This document shows, one piece after another, positions 8,717 through 46,625 of a stretch of 64,000 nucleotides of DNA. Every line of letters starts with the position of its first letter. The stretch's first letter is position 1. Origin of the DNA: an uncultured Microbacter sp. (GTDB taxonomy: Bacteria > Bacteroidota > Bacteroidia > Bacteroidales > Paludibacteraceae); contig CAXXPB010000042.1 of NCBI GenBank assembly GCA_963678825.2, positions 87,344-151,343 on the forward strand, written 5' to 3'. The position numbers were made by a program, and so were the translations under genes. A model generated the notes under the pieces. It saw only the letters and a program-made list of their open reading frames with translations. It was not told the origin of the DNA and did not search any database.

Positions 8717-10813
8717 ATGAAGCAACTGATTTTTACTTTATTGATTATGACTTTATGCGCAACTCCTTCCCATGCAAAAGACGAAGCCAAGCTGATTGAA
8801 AAAAGCGACTTCAAAGTGCAGAACGGAGTGATGCCCCCCGAAGCGCTCTGGGCTCTCGGTCGTGTGGGCGATGTGAGTGTTTCGCCCGACGGCAAAAAAG
8901 TGTTGTACAGCGTGCGCTACTACAGCGTGGAGCAAAACAAGAGCAACGCCGACCTGTATATGATGAATGTTGACGGCAGCAACGTACAACGCCTTACCCA
9001 AACGGCAAAAAGCGAAGGCAGTCCGGCTTTCAGCCCCGACGGCAAACACATCGGCTTTACTTTTCCCGATAAGGATGGTAACGACCAGTTTTTCGAAATG
9101 ACTCTGGACGGTCAGGATCGCAAGCAAATTTCGTCTATCGAGGGCGGCATTGAAGGATTTAAATATGCGCCCGACGGCAAACACATTCTTTACATCAAAC
9201 CCGTCAAAAAGGAGAATCCGCACGAAAAGCTCTTTGCCGGACTCGACAAAACAACGGGCCGCGTGAACGAAGACCTGATGTACCGCCACTGGGACGAATG
9301 GGTGGATAGCTATCCTCATCCTTTCGTAGCCGATTTCGACGGCAGCAAGCTGAGCAACGACACCGACCTTTTGCAGGGCACTCAGTTCGAATCGCCGATG
9401 CGCCCGATGGGTGGCGTAGAGCAACTGGCATGGTCGCCCGACGGCAAAAAAATTGCCTACACCTGTCGCAAAAAGGTGGGCAAAGCCTACGCCCTTTCCA
9501 CCAATTCGGATATCTACCTGTACGATATTGCCGCCAAAACCACCGAAAATATTTCGGAAGGGATGATGGGCTACGATATCAATCCGGTATTCTCGTCCGA
9601 CGGCAAGAAAATTGCCTGGGAAAGCATGGAACACGACGGCTACGAGTCGGACAAATCGCGCCTGATGGTGTACGATTTTGCCACCAAAACCGCCAAAGAT
9701 TATACCCAGAAACTCGATCAGAGCGTTCACAACATCTGCTGGAGCAAGGATAACAGCAAGCTCTACTTTATCAGTCCGTTCCACGGCGTGGAAGATATTT
9801 TTGTGGCCGATGTCAAGACAAATGCCATTCGCCGCGTGACCGAAGGCGTGCATGACTATCTCTCTATCGATTTGGCAGGCAAAAATCTGATCGGATCACG
9901 CCAGTCGATGTCGGCTCCTACCGAGATCTTCTCGATCAATCCGGCCGACGGCAAAGAGGCCCAAATCTCGTTCGAGAACAAGGAGCTGATGGCGCAACTC
10001 AAAATAGCTAACGTGGAAGGTCGCTGGATTAAAACCACCGACAACAAGGATATGCTCACCTGGGTGATCTACCCGCCGAATTTCGACAAAAACAAGAAAT
10101 ACCCCACCCTGCTCTTCTGCGAAGGCGGACCTCAAAGCATGGTGAGCCAGTTCTGGAGCTACCGCTGGAACATGCAGATTATGGCTGCCAACGGCTACAT
10201 CGTGGTGGCTCCCAACCGTCGCGGATTGCCCGGTTTCGGTCAGGAGTGGCTCGAACAGATCAGCGGCGACTACGGCGGACAAAACATGAAGGATTACCTT
10301 TCGGCCATCGACGCGCTTGCCAAAGAACCGTATGTGGACAAAGATCACCTGGGATGCGTGGGTGCCAGCTACGGAGGATTTTCGGTGTACTGGCTGGCCG
10401 GTCACCACGACAAACGTTTCAAAGCCTTTCTGGCACACGACGGCATCTTCAATCTGGAACAGCAATATTGCGAAACCGAAGAGATGTGGTTCGTCAACTG
10501 GGATTTGGGTGGCGCCTACTGGGATAAAAACAACCCCACGGCACAACGCAGTTATGCAAACTCGCCCCACCGCTTTGTCGACAAATGGGACACTCCCCTT
10601 ATGGTGGTTCACAGCGAAAAAGATTACCGCATCGTGGCATCGCAGGGAATGGCGGCCTACAACGCCGCCGTGCTGAGAGACCTTCCGGCTCGTTACCTCT
10701 ACTTCCCCGATGAAAACCACTGGGTAACCAAGCCACAAAACGGAATCCTGTGGCAACGCACCTTCTTCGACTGGCTGGATAAATGGCTGAAAACGCCCGA
10801 GAACTCGAAGTAA
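8717..10813 (+). CDS. S9 family peptidase (dipeptidyl-peptidase 5-like), secreted
   Basis: Signal peptide, PD40 propeller repeats (SPDGK), GASYGG nucleophile, DYRI, DENHW. Confidence 0.92.
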   Translation: MKQLIFTLLIMTLCATPSHAKDEAKLIEKSDFKVQNGVMPPEALWALGRVGDVSVSPDGKKVLYSVRYYSVEQNKSNADLYMMNVDGSNVQRLTQTAKSEGSPAFSPDGKHIGFTFPDKDGNDQFFEMTLDGQDRKQISSIEGGIEGFKYAPDGKHILYIKPVKKENPHEKLFAGLDKTTGRVNEDLMYRHWDEWVDSYPHPFVADFDGSKLSNDTDLLQGTQFESPMRPMGGVEQLAWSPDGKKIAYTCRKKVGKAYALSTNSDIYLYDIAAKTTENISEGMMGYDINPVFSSDGKKIAWESMEHDGYESDKSRLMVYDFATKTAKDYTQKLDQSVHNICWSKDNSKLYFISPFHGVEDIFVADVKTNAIRRVTEGVHDYLSIDLAGKNLIGSRQSMSAPTEIFSINPADGKEAQISFENKELMAQLKIANVEGRWIKTTDNKDMLTWVIYPPNFDKNKKYPTLLFCEGGPQSMVSQFWSYRWNMQIMAANGYIVVAPNRRGLPGFGQEWLEQISGDYGGQNMKDYLSAIDALAKEPYVDKDHLGCVGASYGGFSVYWLAGHHDKRFKAFLAHDGIFNLEQQYCETEEMWFVNWDLGGAYWDKNNPTAQRSYANSPHRFVDKWDTPLMVVHSEKDYRIVASQGMAAYNAAVLRDLPARYLYFPDENHWVTKPQNGILWQRTFFDWLDKWLKTPENSK

Positions 10814-10836
10814 TTCCAAACGGATATGCACACCGT

Positions 10837-10874
10837 AAAGGCTTCATTGAATCGTTATATTCAATGAAGCCTTT
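10837..10874 (+). terminator. Intrinsic terminator
   Basis: AAAGGCTTCATTGAAT...ATTCAATGAAGCCTTT inverted repeat then T-rich tract. Confidence 0.85.
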
Positions 10875-10967
10875 GTTATTTTTATTTCTCCCCTCACGAC
10901 CAATTAGCTTAATAATTATTTTTTTATACCAGCCACAAATTGCATTTAATTTGTTAATTATTTATCG

Positions 10968-10975
10968 TATGTTTG
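10968..10975 (+). promoter_or_regulatory. Putative -7 box reading into the cassette-like array
   Basis: TATGTTTG fits TAnnTTTG; the -33 box is not canonically spaced. Confidence 0.45.
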
Positions 10976-11115
10976 CAGAGGAAATCAATTCGCTTCGGAG
11001 CGTAAGTAACTAACGGTTATTGAGATTACAGACAGATTCTCGTTCAAGCTTAACGAAGTGTAGCTTGGCCGTAAAATAGAATCAGTTTGCAACTGATTAG
11101 CTTCATTGATTTTCA

Positions 11116-11191
11116 ATTCACTTTGTCGCTGGGCATCAGTGAACGCTCACGCAAACCGCCAATACCCTTAGCCTCGGCAGTTAGCAGCTAG
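11116..11191 (+). repeat. attC-like site, family Y right arm, ending at GTTAGCAGCTAG
   Basis: Shares ATTCACTTTGTCG with 45770-45782 and is complementary to the arm at 45739-45776; ends in GTT just upstream of an ORF. Confidence 0.55.
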
Positions 11192-11242
11192 CCGAAAAAC
11201 AATAATGCAATTGCAAGTTTAATTGACAATAACAAAAGAAAT

Positions 11243-12115
11243 ATGCAAGGAGTATGTAGGTTAACTCTAAAACAATGTGAACTTCAAAACTCACATATCT
11301 ATCCAAAGTTTGTAGTTGATTGGATGAAATCTACAGGCTCAAAATACCTAAGAAATTATACTACACCAAATAGGAGGCAGCAAGACGGTCTCAAAAAATA
11401 TTTATTATCTTATGAAGCAGAACAACTTTTTAGTATTCACGAAAAATGGTTTTGTGAAAATGTTTTTCATAAATATTTAGAGAATCAAACTCTTGAAATT
11501 GAATACAATGAGAGTTTATTTTATTTTGCAATTTCTTTTTTGTGGAGAATCTTAGTTCTTGAACTAGAACATCCCAATATTCAGACATTTAAATTTGTTA
11601 ACGAAATGAGAGAAGCTGAAAAAGAATGGCGAGACTTTCTTCTAAACGGAATCTACCCTTTAAATTATGACAGAATTCATTTAATACTATCAGACAATAT
11701 AAAAAATCACACTCTACCTAGTGGAAATGTTGAATACTTCTTTACTAGAAGTATGGATGGCACTACTGCTTTTAACGAGGAGTATAATAAATGTTCCATT
11801 TTTGCGAAGTTCTCCAAATTTATTTTTTTGGGGTTTATAAAAAGTCCAGATGAATCTGGTTTAGTTGGAACTAGAATAAATCCTATAAAAGGGATAATGA
11901 AAGCACCTCAAAAATTTGATAATATCGATGTGACAAGTTTCTTTCTTCACAGAATTCAGATTCTAGACAAAATGGAACTAGCTTCAGAGAATCAACAAGA
12001 AAAAATACTTGACGAAATAAGAAATAACCGAGAATTCTATCAAAACAGCGAATTATTCAACACAATGAATTTTGATAATGAAATGTATAAAAAAAACAAG
12101 AATAACAAATGGTAA
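11243..12115 (+). CDS. Hypothetical protein with degenerate HNH-like N-terminus (cassette gene)
   Basis: CRLT...SHIYPKF...QDGLK..LLSYEAE resembles the CxLC..SHIIP..LC..CE HNH-like pattern; low GC. Confidence 0.6.
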   Translation: MQGVCRLTLKQCELQNSHIYPKFVVDWMKSTGSKYLRNYTTPNRRQQDGLKKYLLSYEAEQLFSIHEKWFCENVFHKYLENQTLEIEYNESLFYFAISFLWRILVLELEHPNIQTFKFVNEMREAEKEWRDFLLNGIYPLNYDRIHLILSDNIKNHTLPSGNVEYFFTRSMDGTTAFNEEYNKCSIFAKFSKFIFLGFIKSPDESGLVGTRINPIKGIMKAPQKFDNIDVTSFFLHRIQILDKMELASENQQEKILDEIRNNREFYQNSELFNTMNFDNEMYKKNKNNKW

Positions 12116-12176
12116 TAATATAAACAAAAAACCTGCTCTGTTCATCCCATTATGCGTTTGATTATTAAGCAATACA

Positions 12177-12235
12177 ATAGCTACATAAGACAAATATATG
12201 CACCATGCAATGGCACATACACAGATGTTAGGCAC
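12177..12235 (+). repeat. Short attC-like site
   Basis: ATATGCACCAT-gca-ATGGCACATAC pairs fully only on the bottom strand (G.T wobbles); ends in GTTAGGC (12227-12233). Confidence 0.6.
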
Positions 12236-12252
12236 AAGTTAAACAATTAGAC

Positions 12253-12894
12253 ATGTACGGAATCCACAAAACATACAAAAGTGACTATCCAAATCAAGTC
12301 CACCAATTGAATCTTTCAATTTCTCAAAACCATTATTTATTGAAAAGTGGAGAGATTAAATATCAAATTAAAAAATTTGATGTCAATTGGAAGAATTACC
12401 AAAAGACCGGAAAAAGACATTTAGTTAACTTTCTAATCAGAGACCATTTTAGCAATTGCTTTTACGCAGAAATTTATCCCATTGATGAGACGCCAGATAT
12501 GAAAGAGTTTCTGTTTAATGCGTGGAGAGAAAAGGAAAAGTATGAATTTTGTGGTATTCCACATCTTTTAATCATAGGAAAACACATATTCGAAAAATTT
12601 CCAGAAATTGAAAACCTCGAGAAAAATATTGGTGTAAAAGTTCAATTAGCATCTAGTGGTTTCACTACTGGAGTTCGCTCACTAAGAGACTGGGAAAATA
12701 ATATCCGATTCGCACCATATTACAATAATTCTAAATACATCAAAGATTTTCAAAACAACACAGAACTTATTTGCCGCAGATTAAATATTCGAGACAGTGG
12801 AAAAACAGAACCAAATCTATTAAAATGGGCAAATAATAAACCTCAGGGAGGAATAATCAATGACAAAAAGAAATTTACTACTTTATTTAAATAA
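12253..12894 (+). CDS. Hypothetical protein resembling a Mu/rve integrase-core fold with degenerate DDE
   Basis: YPNQVHQLNLS, FLIRDHFSNCFYAEIY, FLFNAW...FCGIPHLLII mirror rve core motifs. Confidence 0.6.
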   Translation: MYGIHKTYKSDYPNQVHQLNLSISQNHYLLKSGEIKYQIKKFDVNWKNYQKTGKRHLVNFLIRDHFSNCFYAEIYPIDETPDMKEFLFNAWREKEKYEFCGIPHLLIIGKHIFEKFPEIENLEKNIGVKVQLASSGFTTGVRSLRDWENNIRFAPYYNNSKYIKDFQNNTELICRRLNIRDSGKTEPNLLKWANNKPQGGIINDKKKFTTLFK

Positions 12895-12945
12895 AGACAA
12901 CAAACCAGCACCTAACCCTCGTTGATCGTAGCATGCAAAACAGAT

Positions 12946-13078
12946 TCCCCCGCTCCCGCGCGAATCTTTCGCGTGGGCAAGCCAAACGTTAGGGTAAAAA
13001 CAAAATAGTAACAGCAGGTCGGCGAAACCAGAAAAACAAGACACAGCCACAGGATGCAATCGTGCAACAGTAGGGGGA
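12946..13078. repeat. REP-like element family D copy 1
   Basis: 29-bp identity GCTCCCGCGCGAATCTTTCGCGTGGGCAA with 45794-45822; distal GATGCAATCGTGC arm. Confidence 0.75.
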
Positions 13079-13143
13079 GACCTCCACATAGATAAGCTGT
13101 TGAAAATAAACCACTATTTTATCTACTATTTTGCCGTTCTTTA

Positions 13144-13881
13144 TTATAGCCATTTCACAGATATACTATCTTTCATCCATCTATATTTGATGATACTGTA
13201 GCTCCAAGGTACACTTTCGAGCAGTATATCGTATGCTTTGCTTTCGACCGTGAGTTGCAGCCCCTCATCGATTGCACAGATTTCTCCTTCCCGCTGTAAA
13301 AAACTTTCGCGCAGACCGGCTACCGAAGTATTCTTCAATTCCATCCAATTTTGAATAACTGCCCGCAACATACTATCGGTGGTTTCTTTTTCAGTATCCG
13401 TCAGAACTACGCTTTTCGGAATGGGAATATCAGTCTGAAAACCGGTCAACAGTTTATTGAAAGTCATCTGATGTTCGGAAAATTCTGTTCGTTCAAATAC
13501 CAGGTATTGTAGTACAAACAAAGTGCGTATCTGCGCATCACGATCTTTAAAACTCCCCGCTTCGGTTAACTCCAACCTATCAAACAATCTGGGCAAATAA
13601 GGAGTCAGGAGCGCTAAACCGGCATTATCAATAAAGGTTGGTTCCATAAATTCTTCTTCTAATATTTCATATTCAACAATTTGAGGAGAAAGCTTCCGTT
13701 CCGTGAGTTTTCCACTTAGCTTTTGATTCTTATTCTGCTGTATATCGTGTGACAACTGATTCAGTTCAGGCAAAGGCTGCGCTGTCCTTTTCTGAAGTAC
13801 TTGTGATTGCCGCAGTTTATTCTGTGTTAATAACCGCGATAAATAATATTTTAACAAAATCCGATTGGCATAGCAGGCCAT
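13144..13881 (-). CDS. Orphan, probably 5'-truncated contractile injection system tape-measure-like protein (CIS_TMP C-terminal domain)
   Basis: IDNAGLALLTPYLPRLF...NKLLTG...VIQNW..LKNTSVAGLRESFLQREG...AYDILLESVPWSYSIIKYRWM...VKW. Confidence 0.75.
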   Translation of the reverse strand: MACYANRILLKYYLSRLLTQNKLRQSQVLQKRTAQPLPELNQLSHDIQQNKNQKLSGKLTERKLSPQIVEYEILEEEFMEPTFIDNAGLALLTPYLPRLFDRLELTEAGSFKDRDAQIRTLFVLQYLVFERTEFSEHQMTFNKLLTGFQTDIPIPKSVVLTDTEKETTDSMLRAVIQNWMELKNTSVAGLRESFLQREGEICAIDEGLQLTVESKAYDILLESVPWSYSIIKYRWMKDSISVKWL

Positions 13882-13997
13882 CGATGATATGATAACGAAT
13901 CAGGGCATGTTAATTTTGTGGCATGATAATTCAGTAACTGGTTCGAAAACTAAAAATTACATGACAAAGTTAATATTATATTTTACATAATTCTCTT

Positions 13998-14110
13998 CCT
14001 CGTTCGCAGTAGCGTGTAAAGCAGATTAGGATTCGGCGCAGACTCTTCCTACTTTAGGATATAAAAGCAAGAAGTTTCTTTGAATGGGAATGACACGAAT
14101 AACCGCAAAT
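13998..14110 (+). repeat. Repeat family X (attC-like left arm)
   Basis: GTTCGCAGTAGCGTGTAAAGCAGATT..GTTCGGCG...ATAAAAGCAAG shared with 15539, 18723, 19184 and partly 12917. Confidence 0.75.
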
Positions 14111-14434
14111 CATCTGTTACATACACTGCCTTAGTAAACTCCAGGTGACACAAGTATGGCAGATTCTTAGTTCATGCTAACTGACAGTCAACGACCGAAG
14201 GAAGTTAAACTTGGACTGAACCAACGGTCAGCGAAGCTAAAAGATAACCAAGTTGTACTTGGTTGTGGCTGCAAACCACTCTGGTTTACAGCACAAGTTA
14301 CCGCTTCGCTCAAACTTACGCTAAATCGGACCGTCCGTTATGACCAATACTAAAAAATACAGATAAAATACGAATAAAATATAGATATTTTCATAGGTTT
14401 GATTATCTTTGTTCGGATAAAATACGAATATGAT

Positions 14435-15505
14435 ATGGATAAATTTCAAAACAAGCTAAATTTCAACTTTGGCGTAAATCAACAGATAATCAATAAAGTA
14501 AGCTTTATTGATTCATTTAGAGGCAAATGGAATCTTGTTGAACAGAAAGAAAATAATTATCTGAAAGAGCTTCGGAGAATTGCAACTATAGAATCAATCG
14601 GTTCCTCAACAAGAATTGAAGGAGTTCAATTAACTGACAATGAAATCATAGAGCTTCTTAAAAATGTGGAGATAACAAAACTTGTAACAAGAGACCAACA
14701 GGAAGTAGTCGGATATTATGATGTTCTGGAAATAATTTATGAAAGTTATCCTGAAATTCGCATCTCTCAGAATTACATTCAACAACTTCACCAAAGGTTG
14801 TTGAAATACAGCGAAAAGGATGATAGACACAGAGGGAACTATAAAAACTTATCTAATAAAGTCGTAGCAAACTATCCGGATGGAACTCAAAAGGTGATAT
14901 TTAACACGACTGAACCACACTTGGTTGAAAGTGAAATGAATGAACTAATTAACTGGACAAATCAGGAATTAGAAAAAAATGAAATACACCCATTAGTCAT
15001 AATAGCTTTGTTTATCTATGAATTCTTATCAATTCACCCTTTTCAGGACGGTAATGGTCGACTTTCAAGACTTCTGACAAATTTACTTCTGCTTAAAAAT
15101 AATTATCAGTTCATTCAATATGTATCATTTGAAAATTTAATTGAACAGAAGAAAAAGACTTACTATGAGGCTTTAATGGATGGACAAAAAGACAGAAACA
15201 CAGAAAATGAAAAAATAAATGCCTGGGTTCTTTTCTTTTTAGACTCATTGGAAACGTTAATTCACAGATTAGAACAAAAGTATAGCCTGTTTAAATCTAA
15301 AGGTGGATATTTGAGCGAAAGGCAGAAAAAGATTATGGATTTTATCTCTTCAAATCAGCCGATTAAACTAACAGATTTAGTACTTGCAATGCCCGAAATT
15401 TCAAGCCATACACTAAAAAAAGACTTGCTTTATCTTAAAACAGAACAATTTATCCAATCAATTGGCAAATATAAGGGGACAATATACATAAAAAAGGAAA
15501 GTTAA
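14435..15505 (+). CDS. Fic family protein with C-terminal HTH
   Basis: HPFQDGNGRLSR catalytic motif and SSTRIEG autoinhibitory motif. Confidence 0.92.
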   Translation: MDKFQNKLNFNFGVNQQIINKVSFIDSFRGKWNLVEQKENNYLKELRRIATIESIGSSTRIEGVQLTDNEIIELLKNVEITKLVTRDQQEVVGYYDVLEIIYESYPEIRISQNYIQQLHQRLLKYSEKDDRHRGNYKNLSNKVVANYPDGTQKVIFNTTEPHLVESEMNELINWTNQELEKNEIHPLVIIALFIYEFLSIHPFQDGNGRLSRLLTNLLLLKNNYQFIQYVSFENLIEQKKKTYYEALMDGQKDRNTENEKINAWVLFFLDSLETLIHRLEQKYSLFKSKGGYLSERQKKIMDFISSNQPIKLTDLVLAMPEISSHTLKKDLLYLKTEQFIQSIGKYKGTIYIKKES

Positions 15506-15506
15506 A

Positions 15507-15784
15507 GTACAGGCCATAATACACGTTCTTAGGTTTATCGTAGCGAATAAAACAGATTCAGGTTCGGCGTATGGCTCTGCCTACGTCGTGGATAAAAGCC
15601 GGAAATTTGGTTGAACGTAAATGACACGAATAACTGCAAATAGCTTACCACAAACATTGAAAGGCAAAATGGTTATGCTATCGTTCTAATTCGCGGCGAC
15701 TTGCGTAATTTGCGTTCAATACCTTTGAAACAGAAACGACTCGCCTCAAAAACCGCCACTACTCCTCCTATGCGAACCATTGTT
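15507..15784 (+). repeat. Longest family X element (attC-like) with a nested inner palindrome
   Basis: Starts at inverse core GGCCATAAT, inner IR 15611-15641/15688-15719, ends CTAC...TGCGAACCATTGTT complementary to the family GTTCGCAGTAG arm. Confidence 0.6.
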
Positions 15785-15891
15785 CTTAATTGTGAAAATG
15801 ATACCATAGAATAGATTTTCTTTTAAAATCCCTCTCAATAGATTAGTATTTCATCAAAACTTCCACATCTTTGTAGTCCAAATTAAACACT

Positions 15892-16563
15892 ATGGATTTT
15901 AAAGATAAAGAACTTATTATATTCGACTTTGACGGTACACTCATCAATAGTATTCCCGACTTAGCAACGGCTATCAATAAAATGTTGACGCATTTTAATT
16001 TACCAGACATAGAGATAGACCTCATTGCTTCATTTGTTGGAAACGGAGCTTCTATGTTGGTAAAGAGAGCGTTGAAACTTGCCATGCAGGACAAGGAACC
16101 AACGAATGATTTTTTCGCAGAAGCATTTGCGTTTTATCTTTCGGCATATAAAGAAGTATCGTGTCAGAAAACATTCACTTATCCGGGAGTAGTAGAAACG
16201 CTGAATTACCTTGATAAAAAAGGCTATAAGATGGTGATCTGCTCGAATAAACCGTTTGACTATATTGAACCGATTCTCGATTTTCTTTCCATTAAACCGT
16301 ACTTTAAACGTTGGATTGGCGAAGACTCAATGCCGGAGAAAAAACCTCATGCCGCCCCTTTGCTTTATTTAGCGAAAGAGATGAATACGACAGTAGAAAA
16401 AAGCATCGTGGTGGGTGACTCAAAAAATGATATTCTTGCGGCGCAAAATGCGGGGATGAATAGCGTGGGTGTGACCTATGGCTACAATTACAACGAGAAT
16501 ATTGCAGACTATAAACCAAGTGTAGTGTTAGATAGTTTTCCTGACCTACAAAAAATATTTTGA
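15892..16563 (+). CDS. gph: Phosphoglycolate phosphatase (HAD)
   Basis: FDFDGTLINS, CSNKP, KKPH, VGDSKND, YGYNY. Confidence 0.8.
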   Translation: MDFKDKELIIFDFDGTLINSIPDLATAINKMLTHFNLPDIEIDLIASFVGNGASMLVKRALKLAMQDKEPTNDFFAEAFAFYLSAYKEVSCQKTFTYPGVVETLNYLDKKGYKMVICSNKPFDYIEPILDFLSIKPYFKRWIGEDSMPEKKPHAAPLLYLAKEMNTTVEKSIVVGDSKNDILAAQNAGMNSVGVTYGYNYNENIADYKPSVVLDSFPDLQKIF

Positions 16564-16564
16564 A

Positions 16565-17998
16565 ATGAGTAAGATATACAATGTGGGCATCATCGGTGGT
16601 GGAATATCAGGTTCTGTCACTGCTTTGCAACTCTCCCAATACGGAATAGACAATATTTTATTTGAACAAGGTGAGAGCCTTGTGAATGGACCTCCGTTCT
16701 GCCACTTACACGCAGGAGGAAATCTTTACCCCGACATATCTATTGAGCAATGTAAACAGCTCATGCGTCAATCAATCGAAATGGCAAGACTATTCCCGCA
16801 ATCGATTGACGAAAGACCGACCTTTATCAGCGTTCCAAAATCAGAAAAACTGGATGTAAATAAGATTGAAGATAAGCTCAAACTTCTGGCAAATTACTAT
16901 CAGGAGTTGGTTGGTGAAGATACATCGAATGAAGTACTAGGCAATCCGGCCAACTATTACAAAGCCTACACGCACGAAGATTTGGTTGCACTGGCAAAAC
17001 AAGACACTGTAGAACAGCCCAAATCACACGATGAATGGATGGCCAACGCTATTAAATACATCGATTACGAAAGCTTAAAAATGCCGGTTTTCTTAGTACA
17101 GGAATATGGATGGAACCTGTTTCGGGTAGCCGCTCAGGTACAGTTAGCTCTGACTAAGACCAAAGAATGTGAGCTACAAACAAACACTAAAGTCACCGAC
17201 ATCAAAGACGTACGCGATCAGAATCCGGATTACAACTGGGAAATAAGCACGAATGATGCCGTCTACAAAGTGAAGTATTTAGTGAATTCATCCGGCTATA
17301 AAACGGCAAATATAGATGAATATCTACAGCTAAACTCTAACCGACTGATTGAATACAAAGCGGCCTATATATCCAAATGGCATAGTATTCCGGGCTTAAT
17401 TCCCGAAATGATTTTTCACGGAGAGCGTGGCAGTACGCACGGCATGGCTCAGCTAACACCCTACGATAACGACTATTATCAAATTCACGGCATGACCAAG
17501 GATATCACCTTGTTTGGCAACGGATTGATACAATCAAAAGAAGATGTATCACCAGCCGAATTTGACTCAGCTATCAAACAGAAAATTGCTCGTGAATGGA
17601 ATCAAAATGAAATCAACGAAAGAACTGAATCTGCCATCAGGTATGCAGCCCAATATGTACCGTCATTCAAATCGGCTACTGTGGGTGGGCCGCCCCTGCA
17701 TGGAGCACAGCAAATACCCGGAGATGACCCTAACCTAAGAGTAGGTGAAGTGTGTTTTCCATGTGAATCGTATGCTCGTTCTGAGATTGTAAAAGCGTCT
17801 TCTGCCTTAACGGTAGCCATGCAAATCATTCAGAAAATGCAGGAAGAAAACATTATTCCGGCATTTCAAACGAATGCAAAACAAAATGCACTACTTGACA
17901 GCATCTCCAAACCCGAGATTGATAAGCTAGCAAGTGACCTAGCCAGCCAACGAGGATATCCAAGCTCGCTTTCGCGACTACTTATTGAAAGGAAATAA
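16565..17998 (+). CDS. FAD-dependent oxidoreductase of unknown substrate
   Basis: GIIGGGISG Rossmann motif, CHLHAGGNLY; starts 1 nt after the gph stop. Confidence 0.8.
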   Translation: MSKIYNVGIIGGGISGSVTALQLSQYGIDNILFEQGESLVNGPPFCHLHAGGNLYPDISIEQCKQLMRQSIEMARLFPQSIDERPTFISVPKSEKLDVNKIEDKLKLLANYYQELVGEDTSNEVLGNPANYYKAYTHEDLVALAKQDTVEQPKSHDEWMANAIKYIDYESLKMPVFLVQEYGWNLFRVAAQVQLALTKTKECELQTNTKVTDIKDVRDQNPDYNWEISTNDAVYKVKYLVNSSGYKTANIDEYLQLNSNRLIEYKAAYISKWHSIPGLIPEMIFHGERGSTHGMAQLTPYDNDYYQIHGMTKDITLFGNGLIQSKEDVSPAEFDSAIKQKIAREWNQNEINERTESAIRYAAQYVPSFKSATVGGPPLHGAQQIPGDDPNLRVGEVCFPCESYARSEIVKASSALTVAMQIIQKMQEENIIPAFQTNAKQNALLDSISKPEIDKLASDLASQRGYPSSLSRLLIERK

Positions 17999-18055
17999 AT
18001 ACGTTACCGATTTGTAATCTGCAAGTAAAAATTGATTGAAAACATAAAACTCAAA

Positions 18056-18490
18056 ATGACAAAAGCGCCTGATATAATAGTTAAAACATTAGATTACCAG
18101 CCTATTAATATCTCTGAAAAATATTACAACAAGAACTTACTAATTCTCTTTTACAATAATGATTGTTTAGGTTGTACTGGTCGATCCCTTCCTTTAGCTC
18201 ATAAAATAATGCACGAATTTAAAGATCTGGAAGTAATTGGAATACATAGTAATTTCAACAGAGCTATTACGAAAGAAGAAATTATTGAAATATTTACCTC
18301 AAAGGCACTTCCTTTCCCTATATATATCGATGAAGAACATAAAGTTTTTGATTTGTATCAGTGTGAAGGAACTCCTCACTGGATTATAATTAATAAACTT
18401 GGAGAAAAGTACCGGTCATTTTTTGGATCACAGGAAAATATTCAAACAAGATTATGGTATTCTTTGAGTGAATTAACGCAAACTGAATAG
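18056..18490 (+). CDS. Redoxin/TlpA-like thioredoxin-fold protein
   Basis: CLGC motif, VIGIHS, GTPHW. Confidence 0.8.
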   Translation: MTKAPDIIVKTLDYQPINISEKYYNKNLLILFYNNDCLGCTGRSLPLAHKIMHEFKDLEVIGIHSNFNRAITKEEIIEIFTSKALPFPIYIDEEHKVFDLYQCEGTPHWIIINKLGEKYRSFFGSQENIQTRLWYSLSELTQTE

Positions 18491-18722
18491 TAGCAACGAG
18501 CAATGAAAAGCAAGTAAAAGGAGCTCTTACATGGTAAGAGCTATAAACAAAAGATCGGAGTCACGATTTCCTCAGCTTTGCATATTGCCTCCGTTCTGTG
18601 TCAGCAAGGGCAATAAAGACATTGAATTTCAACAATTAACGTAGATTGTAACATCTAATTAGACGATTAGGCAGACTTTTATAGTGATTTGATATTGTTT
18701 CTATAATCTCTTCAATCTCTCT

Positions 18723-18792
18723 GTTCATTGTAGCGTGTAAAGCGGATTAAGGTGCGGCATATGGCTCTGCCTACGCCGGATATAAAAGCAAG
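18723..18792 (+). repeat. Repeat family X, partial copy
   Basis: GTAGCGTGTAAAGCGGATT...ATGGCTCTGCCTACGCCGGATATAAAAGCAAG. Confidence 0.75.
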
Positions 18793-18915
18793 GCTCGTTG
18801 ATTTCCAATTCGTGCGGCAGCAGATAAAAAGCGCAAAAATAAACTATTTGAAAATAAATTAGTTATACTCAATTAATATACCTACCTTTGCGGAATAATT
18901 TTTTAATTACATGTT

Positions 18916-19107
18916 ATGAATAATGGTACAGTAAAATTTTTTAATGATTCAAAAGGATTTGGATTTATTAAAGAAGAAAAATCAGGAATTGAATATTTTG
19001 TTCATGTTTCAGGTTTAGTTGATGAAATCAAAGAAAATGATGAAGTTTCTTTTGATCTTCAGGATGGCAAAAAAGGATTAAATGCATGCAATGTTAGACT
19101 TTCGTAG
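18916..19107 (+). CDS. Cold-shock protein
   Basis: GTVKFFN, KGFGFI (RNP1), FVHVS (RNP2); TACCTTTG promoter box at 18883. Confidence 0.93.
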   Translation: MNNGTVKFFNDSKGFGFIKEEKSGIEYFVHVSGLVDEIKENDEVSFDLQDGKKGLNACNVRLS

Positions 19108-19135
19108 TCTATTTATCATATACATTTCAATTTGG

Positions 19136-19162
19136 GTCCCGCATTTAGCGGGACTTTTTTTT
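19136..19162 (+). terminator. Terminator after cold-shock gene
   Basis: GTCCCGC-attta-GCGGGAC-TTTTTTTT. Confidence 0.85.
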
Positions 19163-19183
19163 GCTTAAATATTCCGGCATCCC

Positions 19184-19375
19184 TTCGCAGTATCGTGTAA
19201 AGCAGATGCGGGTTCGGCCTATGGCTCTGCCTATGCCGGTGAAAATGCAAGAAGTTTTTTGAACGCAAATAACACGAATATCACAAATTACCGCAAATAA
19301 TCTGCATTGCGGCTACCATACCGAAAGGTTCTGATTTTGTCTTGAGTTGCGGGTACTTGCGCAATTTGCGTTCGA
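19184..19375 (+). repeat. Repeat family X copy with inner GAACGCAAAT/ATTTGCGTTC palindrome
   Basis: Colinear with 15539-15719. Confidence 0.75.
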
Positions 19376-19471
19376 TTCCACACAATCCAAACGCACAAAG
19401 ATAACAAAGGCGATTCCCCGATTATCGGAGAACCGCCTTTATCGCTTTCATAATCTATCGGCTACTGAAAT

Positions 19472-20380
19472 TTAGAAACGCATAAAGAAATTCCACGTTT
19501 CTTTGGCGATCCAGTTGACATCAGATCCGGGATCTTTAGCGGTGTCGGTATGACCACCCACGAATGAACCAAACATTACAGGATATTCAGCAGGAAGTCC
19601 TTTAATTTCAGTTGTGATATGAGTCGGAGTTGTGGCTAATGGTAATTCCGGCAATTGTTTCAATCCGTTATCTTCGGCATGAGTCAATACACAATATTTA
19701 CCACCCTGCTTTTTTTCATCAGAGTTGACATATTTACAAAGACCGTCCTGAGTACCTGTTGTACTAAAGTAAGCCAGAGGTTTGTGTTTGTTTTCAGGAA
19801 GATAAATGTTCCAGTTGGCCGGAGCATAACAAGCCACAGCACGAAGATCACTCTGAAATTCTAATGATAACGAGTAGGTAAACATAGCACCAAAGCTAAA
19901 TCCACAGCAAAATATGCGGGAGGTGTCGATGCTCAGCTTATCCTTAAACAATTTAAGCATATCGGCAAAGAAGAGATGATCTTTGTCATCACGTGTACGC
20001 CAGGGAGTTTGGTCGGTATATCCCTGAGGTGCAACGAAAATAACAGGGACATTATTTTGTTCGGCATAGGCTTTAAGACCATAATAGTTATTATCAACCA
20101 TTGTTTTCATACTTCCCCCCATCATGTGCATGGTAAAAATCAAACGGTAAGTTTTGTTTTTGTCGTAGTTCTTGGGAATATCGATGGTATATTGGCGTTC
20201 AAGCCCTGCACTTGTCATGGTATAAATCCCGCTCTTAAAACCTCCGAGGTCTTTACCGTAACCGGCACTGGGAGTTGGAGCATTTTTCAAGGGACGAGGC
20301 ACTTCTACTGAAATACCTGTTTGTGCATTGCACGAAAAAAATGAAGCTAAAAGGATAAAGATTACAAGTGTTTTTCTCAT
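19472..20380 (-). CDS. Secreted alpha/beta-hydrolase esterase (CE1/PHB-depolymerase-like)
   Basis: Signal peptide, FVAPQG, GFSFGA nucleophile motif, GGH. Confidence 0.75.
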   Translation of the reverse strand: MRKTLVIFILLASFFSCNAQTGISVEVPRPLKNAPTPSAGYGKDLGGFKSGIYTMTSAGLERQYTIDIPKNYDKNKTYRLIFTMHMMGGSMKTMVDNNYYGLKAYAEQNNVPVIFVAPQGYTDQTPWRTRDDKDHLFFADMLKLFKDKLSIDTSRIFCCGFSFGAMFTYSLSLEFQSDLRAVACYAPANWNIYLPENKHKPLAYFSTTGTQDGLCKYVNSDEKKQGGKYCVLTHAEDNGLKQLPELPLATTPTHITTEIKGLPAEYPVMFGSFVGGHTDTAKDPGSDVNWIAKETWNFFMRF

Positions 20381-44500: not shown

Positions 44501-44948
44501 TGTAGTTATAGTTTTCTTAAGTTTAGATTAGGTACTTTTTCTTCGGATCAAACCGTTAAGAAGCACGTTCAACTAAAGTTATTTATTTACGCAACAGGCT
44601 AATACAGAACAACACAAGCACTAAGACAGCGCCAGTTTCTGTCCAACCCGAAAGCGGCACAAAGATAGGGATTTTTCTTTAATAGGAAGCGATTTTCTCC
44701 GTCCGAGAAGAATCAGGTTCGACCACATACGATGTTTTGATATAAAATATTATTTAAGCTAAATAATGTGTTATGTAAGAAATTGTGTAGATTTGGAGCT
44801 GAAAATTTTATTGGCACTTTGCCCGAAAAAGCAAGCTAAAACGTTTCCTTTTCGTATAAAAAGGAGCCGAAATGATATTTGGCTCTGAACATATACAAAT
44901 TTCAACTAAGTATATATACATGTGATGTTTCATCCAAAAATAGACAAA

Positions 44949-45698
44949 ATGACATCAAAAGAAAAAATTACAAAAGAGTTTACAGATTGCATTAACGATG
45001 CCGCACCAATACTTTTATTCCTACAAGGAAAATTAAAGAAAGAGTTGGCTGAAAAATATTCCCTTCCATACGAATATCAGAAATGGTATTCTAAGGCTCT
45101 AAAGGTTGTAGAATTCTTAGGGAAAGATCGATTTCAAGAGTTTAAGTCATATTATGAAATTGATCCAAAAAGGAAAACGATGGGTTATGGCAATTACTAT
45201 ATTCAAGACTATTTGAAAGGTGTAGCACCAAACAGATGGAACACTCCTGATTTTGACACCAAAGAAGAAACTCTTAAAAATGTATATAACCAATATACTA
45301 TTTTACGCTCTATTGGCGACAGAATTGATAGTGTCCTTTCAGATATACAAACAACTTTATTTGCAGAATTACAAGATATTGAACTTGACACAGCTCAAAG
45401 TTTATTGAAAATTAATTTGCGCTCAAGTGGTGTTATTGCGGGAGTAGTATTGGAAAGTTATCTCTCAAAAGTAACAGAAAACCATAGTTTAACTTTATCT
45501 AAGAAAAACCCAACTCTTTCTGATTTCAACGAAACACTTAAAAACAACAATATTCTTGACACTACAGTGTGGCGGAAAATTTCTTATTTAAGTGACATTA
45601 GAAATATCTGTGCGCACAAAAAAAATACAGAGCCTACTAAAGAACAAGTTGAAGAACTAATTACAGGTGTTCATTGGGTGACAAAAAATGTATTTTAA
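44949..45698 (+). CDS. Hypothetical protein with C-terminal HEPN-like domain
   Basis: AGVVLE...RNICAH (RxxxxH) motif; low GC. Confidence 0.7.
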   Translation: MTSKEKITKEFTDCINDAAPILLFLQGKLKKELAEKYSLPYEYQKWYSKALKVVEFLGKDRFQEFKSYYEIDPKRKTMGYGNYYIQDYLKGVAPNRWNTPDFDTKEETLKNVYNQYTILRSIGDRIDSVLSDIQTTLFAELQDIELDTAQSLLKINLRSSGVIAGVVLESYLSKVTENHSLTLSKKNPTLSDFNETLKNNNILDTTVWRKISYLSDIRNICAHKKNTEPTKEQVEELITGVHWVTKNVF

Positions 45699-45704
45699 TA
45701 AAAA

Positions 45705-45782
45705 AGGAAGGCTCATCACACACCTATGTTTATTAACTGACTGAGGGTATGTCTGCAGTTCTGCGCCCCATTCACTTTGTCG
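45705..45782 (+). repeat. attC-like site, family Y left arm
   Basis: Begins just after the stop (GGCTCATCAC); CTGAGGGTAT..GCAGTT.TGCG..TTCACT is complementary to 11138-11172. Confidence 0.55.
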
Positions 45783-45785
45783 TTC

Positions 45786-45947
45786 TCCCCCCTGCTCCCG
45801 CGCGAATCTTTCGCGTGGGCAAACCAAGCGGTAGCAACGAGCCCAGAAAAAGAACGGAATCAAATTTCAGAACAGTATAGTCTAGGCTTATGGGACTACA
45901 CAATCAGCAGAGTACGGCATGGTATCACGATGCAATCATGCGGCAGC
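45786..45947. repeat. REP-like element family D copy 2
   Basis: 29-bp identity with 12952-12980; distal CACGATGCAATCATGCG arm. Confidence 0.75.
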
Positions 45948-45971
45948 TATGTTAGCTTAAAACAATATACA

Positions 45972-46625
45972 ATGAAAAAAATAACACTTATCTTATTGTC
46001 CTTTACTTTGATAACTTTAGTCTCTTTTGGACAAAAAGCTCAAGACCTAATTACACCAAAGTTCAACGACAAATATTCTGATTTCGTCAAACGACTTGAA
46101 GCTGGGAAAACCGATATTAACTATACTGAATTTCGAGAAAGTTTTATCGAAAGTGAACAATTCAAAGTTGCTTCAAAAGCAAAGAAACAGTTTGAAAGCT
46201 TAAAACAGGAACTGTATACTCAAATGGACAAGTCTAATTCTCAGGAAATAATCAGAATTACAAAAGCCATGTTAAGTATTGACTACACAAGTATGTTGGC
46301 TCATAAAATTCTACGGCAGACGTATCAAACGATTGGGGATACCTTAAACGCAAGCAAATACAAAACAATTCAGTTTGGGCTTTTGCATTCGATAGCTGAC
46401 AGCGGGAATGGCAAAACTTGCGAGACAGCATGGCGCGTAGTTCAAGTTAGCGAAGAATACTTCATTCTTCAAATGCTGGGTGTTGAATTGACAAGCCAAA
46501 GCATTGACAACTCTAATGGGCTTTGCGACAAAATGATAGTAAGAACAAAAGATGGAGAAGAAAAGACTTATTACTTCGAAATAAGCAAAGTATTTGAAGG
46601 TTATAAAAAACTAGGGCTAAAATAA
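45972..46625 (+). CDS. Secreted hypothetical protein (DUF4919-like)
   Basis: Signal peptide; SIADSGNGKTCETAWRVVQVSEEY motif. Confidence 0.65.
   Translation: MKKITLILLSFTLITLVSFGQKAQDLITPKFNDKYSDFVKRLEAGKTDINYTEFRESFIESEQFKVASKAKKQFESLKQELYTQMDKSNSQEIIRITKAMLSIDYTSMLAHKILRQTYQTIGDTLNASKYKTIQFGLLHSIADSGNGKTCETAWRVVQVSEEYFILQMLGVELTSQSIDNSNGLCDKMIVRTKDGEEKTYYFEISKVFEGYKKLGLK

Follow-up and report, generated by a model that had tools for sequence, protein, structure and literature searches.

A recombinase-less, partly decayed gene-cassette array in a Microbacter genome, probably part of an integron-like system of Bacteroidales

Integrons are thought to need an insertion specific to their integrase, IntI, for reading folded attC sites. 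Clusters of attC sites without an integrase (CALIN) are defined by IntegronFinder as at least two attC sites lying close together, and in IntegronFinder surveys complete integrons were all but absent from Bacteroidetes. One classification of tyrosine recombinases distinguishes an "integron-like" subgroup in which conservation of the insertion is incomplete. Besides integrons and CALIN, the closest described system appears, by its architecture, to be rAID-1 (recombinase-associated acquired interbacterial defence) of gut Bacteroidales, which comprises a XerD-like recombinase at the 5' end, co-oriented genes of low guanine-plus-cytosine (GC) content and intergenic repeats "reminiscent of integrons" (Ross et al. 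2019, bioRxiv 10.1101/471110). Here, a gene-cassette array was analyzed in a stretch of 64,000 nucleotides (the window) from an uncultured Microbacter sp. of the order Bacteroidales, which corresponds to C42:87344-151343 (contig CAXXPB010000042.1) in an assembly of 3.85 Mb and 70 contigs that is 89% complete (GCA_963678825.2). The array locus extends over about 10,945-15,735 of the window, between a peptidase S9 gene and a HAD hydrolase gene.

This locus is likely a satellite array, partly decayed and without a recombinase, of an integron-like cassette system found widely in Bacteroidales. The initial annotation, made from the letters of the window, had proposed a decaying integron-like array without a recombinase of its own, possibly served by a divergent tyrosine recombinase elsewhere. 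When the sequence was read again, all the motifs it quoted were found where it had placed them, and its core inference is supported; one of its three pairs of cassette start and end proved spurious, and the site at 12227 is attI-like.

The site logic was read from the intact arrays of the same genome. Family A, an attC-like repeat of about 135 nt, forms arrays on contigs C65 (42.0-50.4 kb, 8 copies), C7 (143.9-151.9 kb, 10 copies) and C59 (0.1-1.9 kb, 3 copies), with a single copy and cassette on C66. Its layout, ..YTAAC-ACAC-GCCTATG ... CATAGCC-TCGGTC-GTTAK.., read in 19 full copies, corresponds to R''-L''...L'-R' with a GTTRRRY-like core, and of the 39 copies of the 9-mer TAAYACACG in the genome, 20 lie in attC sites. 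Of 20 cassettes, 19 begin with 9-10 nt, counted from GTT, that are perfectly complementary in reverse to the bases closing in AAC at the beginning of the next site, which form the end of the same cassette. Non-cognate pairs agree over only about 5 nt on average, and so do the two ends of a single site. By analogy with exchange at G/TT in integrons, this cognate pattern would be the mark of strand exchange inside the core. When the sites were folded computationally as single-stranded DNA, the bottom strand was more stable than the top strand in 19 of 19 family-A sites, with means of -32.3 vs -26.2 kcal/mol. The bottom-strand consensus fold has 35 pairs, 7 of them with compensatory changes, and several fixed G.T pairs that become C.A mismatches if the top strand is folded. 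The open reading frames (ORFs) of the arrays are all on the same strand as the sites, and cassette GC is 0.28-0.34. Pfam searches with 20 cassette proteins of the C65 and C7 arrays gave HEPN, trypsin-like peptidase, isochorismatase and DUF6966 domains; most of the proteins had no match, and no immunity-protein family was found among the 20.

The search for an IntI-like recombinase was successful on C65, where a XerA/IntI-like enzyme of 534 amino acids (aa) is encoded at C65:39626-41230, directly upstream of an attI-like site and the C65 array and on the same strand. It is the sole strong IntI-like match in the genome. Its C-terminal 280 residues scored 218 bits against the XerA/"integron integrase" model (cut-off 220), and the enzyme scored 205 bits against the IntI model TIGR02249 (cut-off 265), for which it is the best match in the genome, and 150 bits against PRK15417 (cut-off 435). 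By sequence, the closest enzyme of solved structure is the integron integrase VchIntIA (2a3v, E 3.5e-37). In the alignment to VchIntIA/IntI4, the stretch holding the IntI-specific insertion has 25 residues in the C65 enzyme vs 68, and because about 43 residues of the insertion are thus missing, the enzyme is, as judged from this alignment, not an IntI. Its N-terminal extension (about 255 aa, residues 1-255) consists of three repeats with invariant W..W..P positions and is kept in 13 homologues at 32-47% identity (L001:703-1488, residues 1-262). In the predicted model, residues 1-262 have a mean predicted local distance difference test (pLDDT) score of 77, about 88 per repeat, and form three beta-beta-alpha-beta-beta-alpha units. 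No Pfam family was assigned to the extension, and a Foldseek search against the PDB gave nothing at E <= 0.001.

Homologues of the recombinase, at 38-66% identity and often at contig ends, were present in 96 of 251 sampled genomes of Bacteroidales (38%). In the metagenome-assembled genome L026 from a lake, a 53%-identical recombinase precedes the same layout with unrelated attC bodies, and the cores are cognate by eye in five out of five cassettes, the one behind the attI-like site and the next four. On many contigs of Paludibacter and other Bacteroidales (loci L044-L069; also C59:2654-2830), only the last 20-120 recombinase codons are left upstream of the attI-like site. These remnants at array platforms suggest, from their sequences, that the recombinase gene was lost repeatedly. 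No tyrosine recombinase is encoded on the 174-kb contig C42 that carries the window.

It is possible, if on balance doubtful, that these arrays belong to the rAID-1 family proper, that is, to recombinase-associated arrays of orphan immunity genes against contact-dependent toxins, with cargo that serves interbacterial defence. The criteria for rAID-1 are a XerD-like recombinase at least 44% identical to BF9343_RS08045, at least 2 co-oriented downstream genes with GC of at most 41%, and repetitive intergenic motifs, and rAID-1 is reported in over half of sequenced Bacteroidales. The C65 array has the same architecture, with ORFs that are all on the recombinase strand, the low cassette GC given above and intergenic repeats, and the share of sampled genomes with a recombinase homologue points in the same direction. 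However, the 20 cassette proteins gave no immunity families, the cargo of the window is a Fic enzyme and two proteins without a family match, and the organism is environmental and not a gut Bacteroides. The question is one of classification and role, and a rAID-1 assignment is compatible with the cassette mechanism.

The attI-like site consists of a 7-bp hairpin and CACATACACAGATGTTAG and is present in five copies in the genome, the stems of which vary by compensatory changes. It sits downstream of the C65 recombinase gene and opens the arrays on C65, C59 and C66, where the cassette behind it follows the cognate-core rule. In the window copy (S2 in Table 1), two C.A/A.C mismatches of the hairpin at 12200-12216 turn into G.T pairs on the bottom strand, and the remark of the initial annotation that a hairpin at 12195-12220 closes completely only on that strand was borne out, for an element that is conserved. 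The site at 12195-12233 is attI-like and not an attC. A terminator and a TAnnTTTG box (TATGTTTG) had been described upstream of the array, and both are present. The box belongs to a promoter-like repeat, family F, which also precedes the C65 recombinase gene and recombinase-less arrays on C66 and has three copies in a part of C2 that is rich in repeats. On C66 and at the window locus, where no recombinase gene is present, box F directly precedes the array.

Within the window, the clearest cassette is the ORF2 unit. Its start GTTAGGCAC and its inverse core GCACCTAAC form 7 of 9 pairs on the top strand and 9 of 9 on the bottom strand with G.T pairs, as had been noticed, and only 4% of non-cognate core pairs reach 9 of 9 under the same rule. 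It had been predicted that homology to other genomes would break at G/TT, and the ORF2 unit does break exactly at GTT and at AAC: in blastn against the metagenome contig L095, homology extends over exactly 12227-12916, from the G of GTT to the C of AAC, and the 75% ORF2 homologue of that contig has an unrelated attC-like site on either side. In L097, homology to the unit likewise begins at 12227. A large protein database contained 80 relatives of ORF2 (35-82% identity), and no match was found in 250 genomes of the order-level sample. The array of L095 (26.6 kb) is located directly downstream of infC-rpmI-rplT, with an acetyltransferase, the ORF2 homologue and a DUF4919 protein as cassettes, and its position indicates another platform adjoining conserved genes.

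Around the Fic gene, the imperfect pairing of GTTATGACC with GGCCATAAT amounts to 8 of 9 positions, and the family-A spacer ACACG follows the inverse core. Homologues of the Fic gene are patchily distributed (31 of 184 genera, 30-72% identity). At four of the nine loci that were read, each in another genome, they are bounded by GTT../..AAC cores complementary at 9-10 of 10 positions, compared to 4 of 90 non-cognate combinations, and the boundary prediction thus held for this gene, too. At a fifth locus, in genome G111, C-type palindromes (see below) flank the gene as attC sites would.

The third unit was confirmed in part. The motif GTTAGCAGC at 11180 is the R' of a family-A 3' half, and an 81%-identical homologue of ORF1 is present in a family-A-type array of another metagenome, with homology over 11116-12118. 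The proposed end partner TAGCTACATAA at 12178 was rejected as the inverse core of ORF1: it forms 5-6 of 9 pairs, which is the non-cognate level, it lies inside the homology that flanks the attI-like site, and the homology of the ORF1 cassette elsewhere stops earlier. That homology ends 3 nt past the stop codon, from which it follows that the 3' site belonging to ORF1 is lost in the window.

Table 1. Features of the array locus and its borders in the window, in order of position (nt).
Feature	Position	Strand	Description
Terminator-like hairpin	10837-10874	+	Ends the peptidase S9 gene; 16-nt perfect inverted repeat, then T run
Promoter-like repeat, family F	10945-10985	+	Holds the TAnnTTTG box TATGTTTG at 10968-10975
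Site S1, chimeric attC-like	11003-11188	+	R''-like AGTAAC/ACTAAC at 11006-11014; family D/E 5' half at 11028-11104
Site S1, 3' part	11116-11184	+	Family-A 3' half; R' GTTAGCAGC at 11180
ORF1	11243-12115	+	290 aa; GC 0.30; own 3' attC missing
Site S2, attI-like	12160-12233	+	Hairpin 12200-12206/12210-12216; CACATACACAGATGTTAG at 12214-12231; GTT at 12227
ORF2 cassette, GTT to AAC	12227-12916	+	ORF at 12253-12894, 213 aa; GC 0.31; inverse core GCACCTAAC at 12908-12916
Repeat family B, fragment	12921-12946	+	26 nt; precedes repeat C
Repeat family C, REP-like two-hairpin element	12947-13075	+	Abuts the truncated end of the ORF2 cassette
Contractile-injection-system operon remnant	13077-13985	-	Fused ORF at 13144-13881
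Repeat family B, copy	14002-14115	+
Site S4, complete attC-like hairpin	14176-14345	+	R'' GCTAAC at 14176-14181; family D body; family-A-type R' GTTATGACC at 14337
Fic cassette	14337-15520	+	ORF from 14399 (TTG) or 14435 (ATG) to 15505; GC 0.31
Site S5, decayed inverse core	15509-15525	+	GGCCATAAT at 15512-15520 and family-A spacer ACACG, with transitions
Repeat family B, copy at array end	15533-15645	+

The four long ORFs of the interval are 11243-12115, 12253-12894 and 14399-15505 on the plus strand, with GC of 0.30-0.31 in a genome of GC 0.425, and 13144-13881 on the minus strand. The intergenic DNA of the locus is a patchwork of repeat families that also occur elsewhere in the genome, with family-A, attI-like and promoter-box repeats placed at the junctions of genes. 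S4 is strongly structured (fold z = -3.9), and in its bottom-strand fold the R' GTTAT closes on the R'' CTAAC. S2 and S4 are the only whole sites of the window; S1 is chimeric, and the sites downstream of ORF1, ORF2 and the Fic gene are lost or truncated, the rest of the S5 attC being replaced by repeat B. In all, the locus comprises a single complete attC-like site, a chimeric one, an attI-like site and two inverse cores that are truncated, on a contig without a tyrosine recombinase, and the array looks largely fossil.

The whole of 11116-15784 had been taken as a cassette array, and this did not stand, about a quarter of it (12947-14115) being no cassette DNA. According to the sequence comparison, 13077-13985 is a deletion remnant of a contractile-injection-system operon and not a cassette. 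Its first part, 13077-13830, corresponds to the tape-measure gene (PF19268), of which it keeps the 3' half, and its second, 13835-13985, to the 5' end of the operon; the two pieces are 18.4 kb apart in sister genome G010 (G010:C11:150517-169843), at a different locus. The fusion is in frame and joins the first approximately 15 operon codons to the last approximately 230 tape-measure codons, and the resulting ORF matches only the C-terminal half of PF19268. PADLOC gave no match for the remnant.

The remnant lies between dispersed repeats. Family C, about 125-190 nt long, has terminal inverted repeats of about 18 nt (CCCCNGCTGCCGCACGAT ... ATCGTGCGGCAGCNGGGG) and two internal hairpins; copies are present at 12947-13075 and 45789-45947 of the window, at C66:8133-8197 and at locus L016 of genome G001. 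In at least three places it directly adjoins an attC-like site, truncated or complete, and in G001 it stands between cassette-like genes; it may represent a second class of attC or a repetitive extragenic palindromic (REP)-like element that targets attC sites. A 77-nt attC site from ACCTAAC (12910) to GTTAGGG (12979) was rejected, its GTT lying inside repeat C, where other C copies have GCC or GGT. Repeat B is a doubtful attC candidate: five of six folds were no better than shuffles, the only marginal one being the minus strand of the 14002 copy (z -2.0), and there were no cognate cores in G001. Some B copies share a 3' arm (..CGTGCGGCAGCAG) with family C. Family D/E is a long hairpin element (..CCTGATGGCGCAAG ... 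CTTGCGCTAAACATCAGG..) with variable outer box pairing within the same copy, found at 11028-11104 and 14176-14330, at C7:110.3-110.8 kb and C22:105.06-105.19 kb, and at locus L015 of genome G004; both window copies are fused to family-A-type R' ends. Rfam gave no match at gathering score in the whole window, and in 10800-19500 only chance-level matches were seen.

The peptidase S9/HAD locus was compared in four sister species (genomes G001, G004, G007 and G009). The flanks are 91-95% identical to the window, and the content of the locus differs in all five species: the DNA between the flanks measures 1.2 kb in G004, 5.4 kb in G009, 6.5 kb in G001 and 14 kb in G007, and homology to the window is lost at about 10,820-11,090 and regained at about 15,735-15,766. 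All versions open with box F, which in G001 and G009 is directly followed by the attI-like site, and contain co-oriented low-GC genes with the same repeat families between them. In G007, family-A sites with cognate cores flank two intact cassettes. The single 213-aa cassette of G004 was considered as a homologue of ORF2 and is not homologous. Because every version shares box F, the gene orientation and GC, and the repeats, and G007 has cognate cores, the locus is, as far as these sequences indicate, a conserved recombinase-less chromosomal platform of the system in the genus.

Such variable content could also be that of an ordinary hypervariable island, generated by homologous recombination between the flanks and by dispersed REP-like and terminator repeats, with the GTT/AAC motifs incidental. 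This would agree with the dispersal of families B, C and D/E in the genome, the deletion remnant of an unrelated operon in the middle of the interval and the end partner of ORF1 at chance level. It is nevertheless quite unlikely, and was disfavoured already by the ORF2 homology that ends exactly at the cores; moreover, the site families of the window are also those of the arrays with cognate cores, and a sister species has intact cognate cassettes at the same locus. A very unlikely alternative is that the repeats are the ends of small transposable elements, of the miniature inverted-repeat (MITE) or REP type, and that the genes were moved as passengers of transposition. Family C, with its terminal inverted repeats, abuts truncated attC halves at 12947, 45789 and C66:8197, as such elements might, but neither target duplications nor transposase genes were found nearby, family A has the integron-type offset in which a cassette start finds its partner at the end of that cassette, not within the same site, and the C-type palindromes of G111 flank the Fic cassette in the manner of attC sites. 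That the locus is a canonical integron remnant (CALIN), its IntI merely missing from the incomplete assembly, is scarcely credible: the GTTRRRY-like cores, the R''/L''/L'/R' layout and the bottom-strand bias do resemble classical attC sites, but the best TIGR02249 match of the genome is the C65 enzyme, below the cut-off and without the IntI insertion, and this enzyme is physically joined to an attI-like site and an array, as is its homologue in L026.

The cargo had been called conflict-related. This is supported for the Fic protein (PF02661 at 2.5e-19), which matches the PADLOC SoFic model at 3.4e-43; for ORF2 it is only suggested by neighbours, its relatives elsewhere adjoining an AbiJ-like gene and restriction-modification genes. 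Like SoFic-type defence proteins, the window Fic keeps HPFxDGNGR; its motif HPFQDGNGR is intact (HPFQDGNGRLSR at about 15036-15071) and follows the pattern HxFx(D/E)GNGRxxR. Unlike them, it scored 63 bits, far below the NCBIfam SoFic equivalog cut-off of 550, and its defence function is putative. ORF1 and ORF2 had no Pfam, NCBIfam or PADLOC match.

Two further patches were observed in the window. At 44912-45975, in a second cassette patch, a low-GC gene of 257 aa, which was noted earlier as HEPN-like, lies between GTGATG (44912) and CATCAC (45714), followed by ACAC and a family-A 5' half (45715-45785), repeat C (45789-45947), an R'-like GTTAGC and a lipoprotein-like gene. The GTGATG core also starts the Fic cassette of G111 (L079). 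The family-A 5' half of this patch and the 3' half of S1 are 34 kb apart and share about 16 model positions (hmm 64-80); the split may stem from a rearrangement, or each half may have been truncated independently by other repeats. Downstream of the HAD and FAD-oxidoreductase genes, a low-GC ORF of 152 aa (18032-18490) is followed by two repeat B copies (18718-18809 and 19168-19306), and 18032-19306 is possibly another small cassette patch.

In this system, the C65 recombinase gene lies behind a Bacteroidetes-type promoter box and is followed by the attI-like site (a short hairpin and ..AGATGTTAG) and by co-oriented, low-GC, mostly single-gene cassettes between long imperfect hairpins (..YTAAC-ACAC-L'' ... 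L'-spacer-GTTAK..). In the proposed mechanism, a tyrosine recombinase would insert and excise cassettes by exchanging strands of the attI-like site and of folded attC-like sites within the GTTA core, probably on the folded bottom strand, as in integrons. With exchange inside the GTTA core, the start of a cassette (TTA and 5-6 nt) would therefore complement its own end. The C65 enzyme would serve satellite platforms in trans, acting on single-stranded sites, and the promoter box would drive the array. The window platform would be one of these, with a box and a first site but no recombinase gene, and with three cassette genes, ORF1, ORF2 and the SoFic-like Fic gene, that are also cassettes elsewhere. 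The chances seem about even that Bacteroidales have a true functional integron analogue, in which a XerA/IntI-like enzyme without the IntI insertion and with a three-repeat N-terminal domain recombines folded bottom-strand attC-like hairpins at GTTA, one copy serves several recombinase-less platforms in trans, and the so far unrecognised site-level mechanism behind rAID-type arrays is thereby given.

Several observations weigh against reading the locus as an array of such a system. S4 is the only complete hairpin site of the window, and S1 folds weakly, no better than shuffles. With ORF1 lacking a 3' site and the sites downstream of ORF2 and the Fic gene truncated, the array may now be immobile. 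No recombination product was seen, and the read layout, taken from contigs only, gave weak repeat-to-repeat joints: the joint of 14037 to 15572 has sides of 26 nt and fits matches from repeat B to repeat B, and the remaining joints are single low-depth contigs. As its sequence indicates, the C65 enzyme is without the IntI insertion that is held to be needed for attC recognition, and computed energies are the sole basis of the bottom-strand preference. Families B, C and D/E are also intergenic at places without obvious cassettes. Some homologues of ORF1, ORF2 and the Fic gene have no flanking sites (L084, L094 and L073-74), and for each of the three genes some of the more distant homologues are found away from arrays.

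What is new is that a site logic of integron grade, marked by cognate cores, an attI-like site and a bias to the bottom strand, goes with a recombinase that lacks the IntI insertion and has homologues in roughly 40% of the genomes sampled in the order. Should the C65 enzyme be shown to act on these sites, it would represent a second, independent solution to cassette capture, offer a mechanism that can be tested for the rAID-type arrays abundant in gut Bacteroidales, and allow cassette cargo, much of which is defence-like, to be mined in a major phylum. The value of the window locus lies mainly in its natural record of array decay and of conserved recombinase-less platforms.

Compared to rAID-1, the present system belongs to the same order and shares the position of a recombinase at the 5' end, the co-oriented short low-GC genes, the intergenic repeats and a very high prevalence. 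It differs in its cargo, in which immunity-protein families were not seen. The core logic, the attI-like hairpin, the strand asymmetry and the recombinase-less platforms at conserved chromosomal loci are all features of the present system that do not appear in the accessible part of the rAID-1 text, and a limited literature search gave no paper describing the core logic for Bacteroidales arrays. With integrons and CALIN, the system has in common a platform with a promoter and a primary site, promoterless co-oriented cassettes, recombinase-less arrays elsewhere in the genome and cargo mostly without an assigned function. The sites are likewise imperfect palindromes with an inverse core ..TAAC, a core GTTA..., a crossover in the core and a better fold on the bottom strand. 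In contrast to integrons, the recombinase lacks about 43 residues of the IntI insertion and stays below the IntI cut-offs, carries an N-terminal extension of about 255 aa with three W..W-P repeats and no Pfam or PDB match, and shares one promoter box and one orientation with the cassettes. A conserved hairpin is part of the primary site, and the attC-like sites are long (130-170 nt), modular and composed of mixed repeat families.

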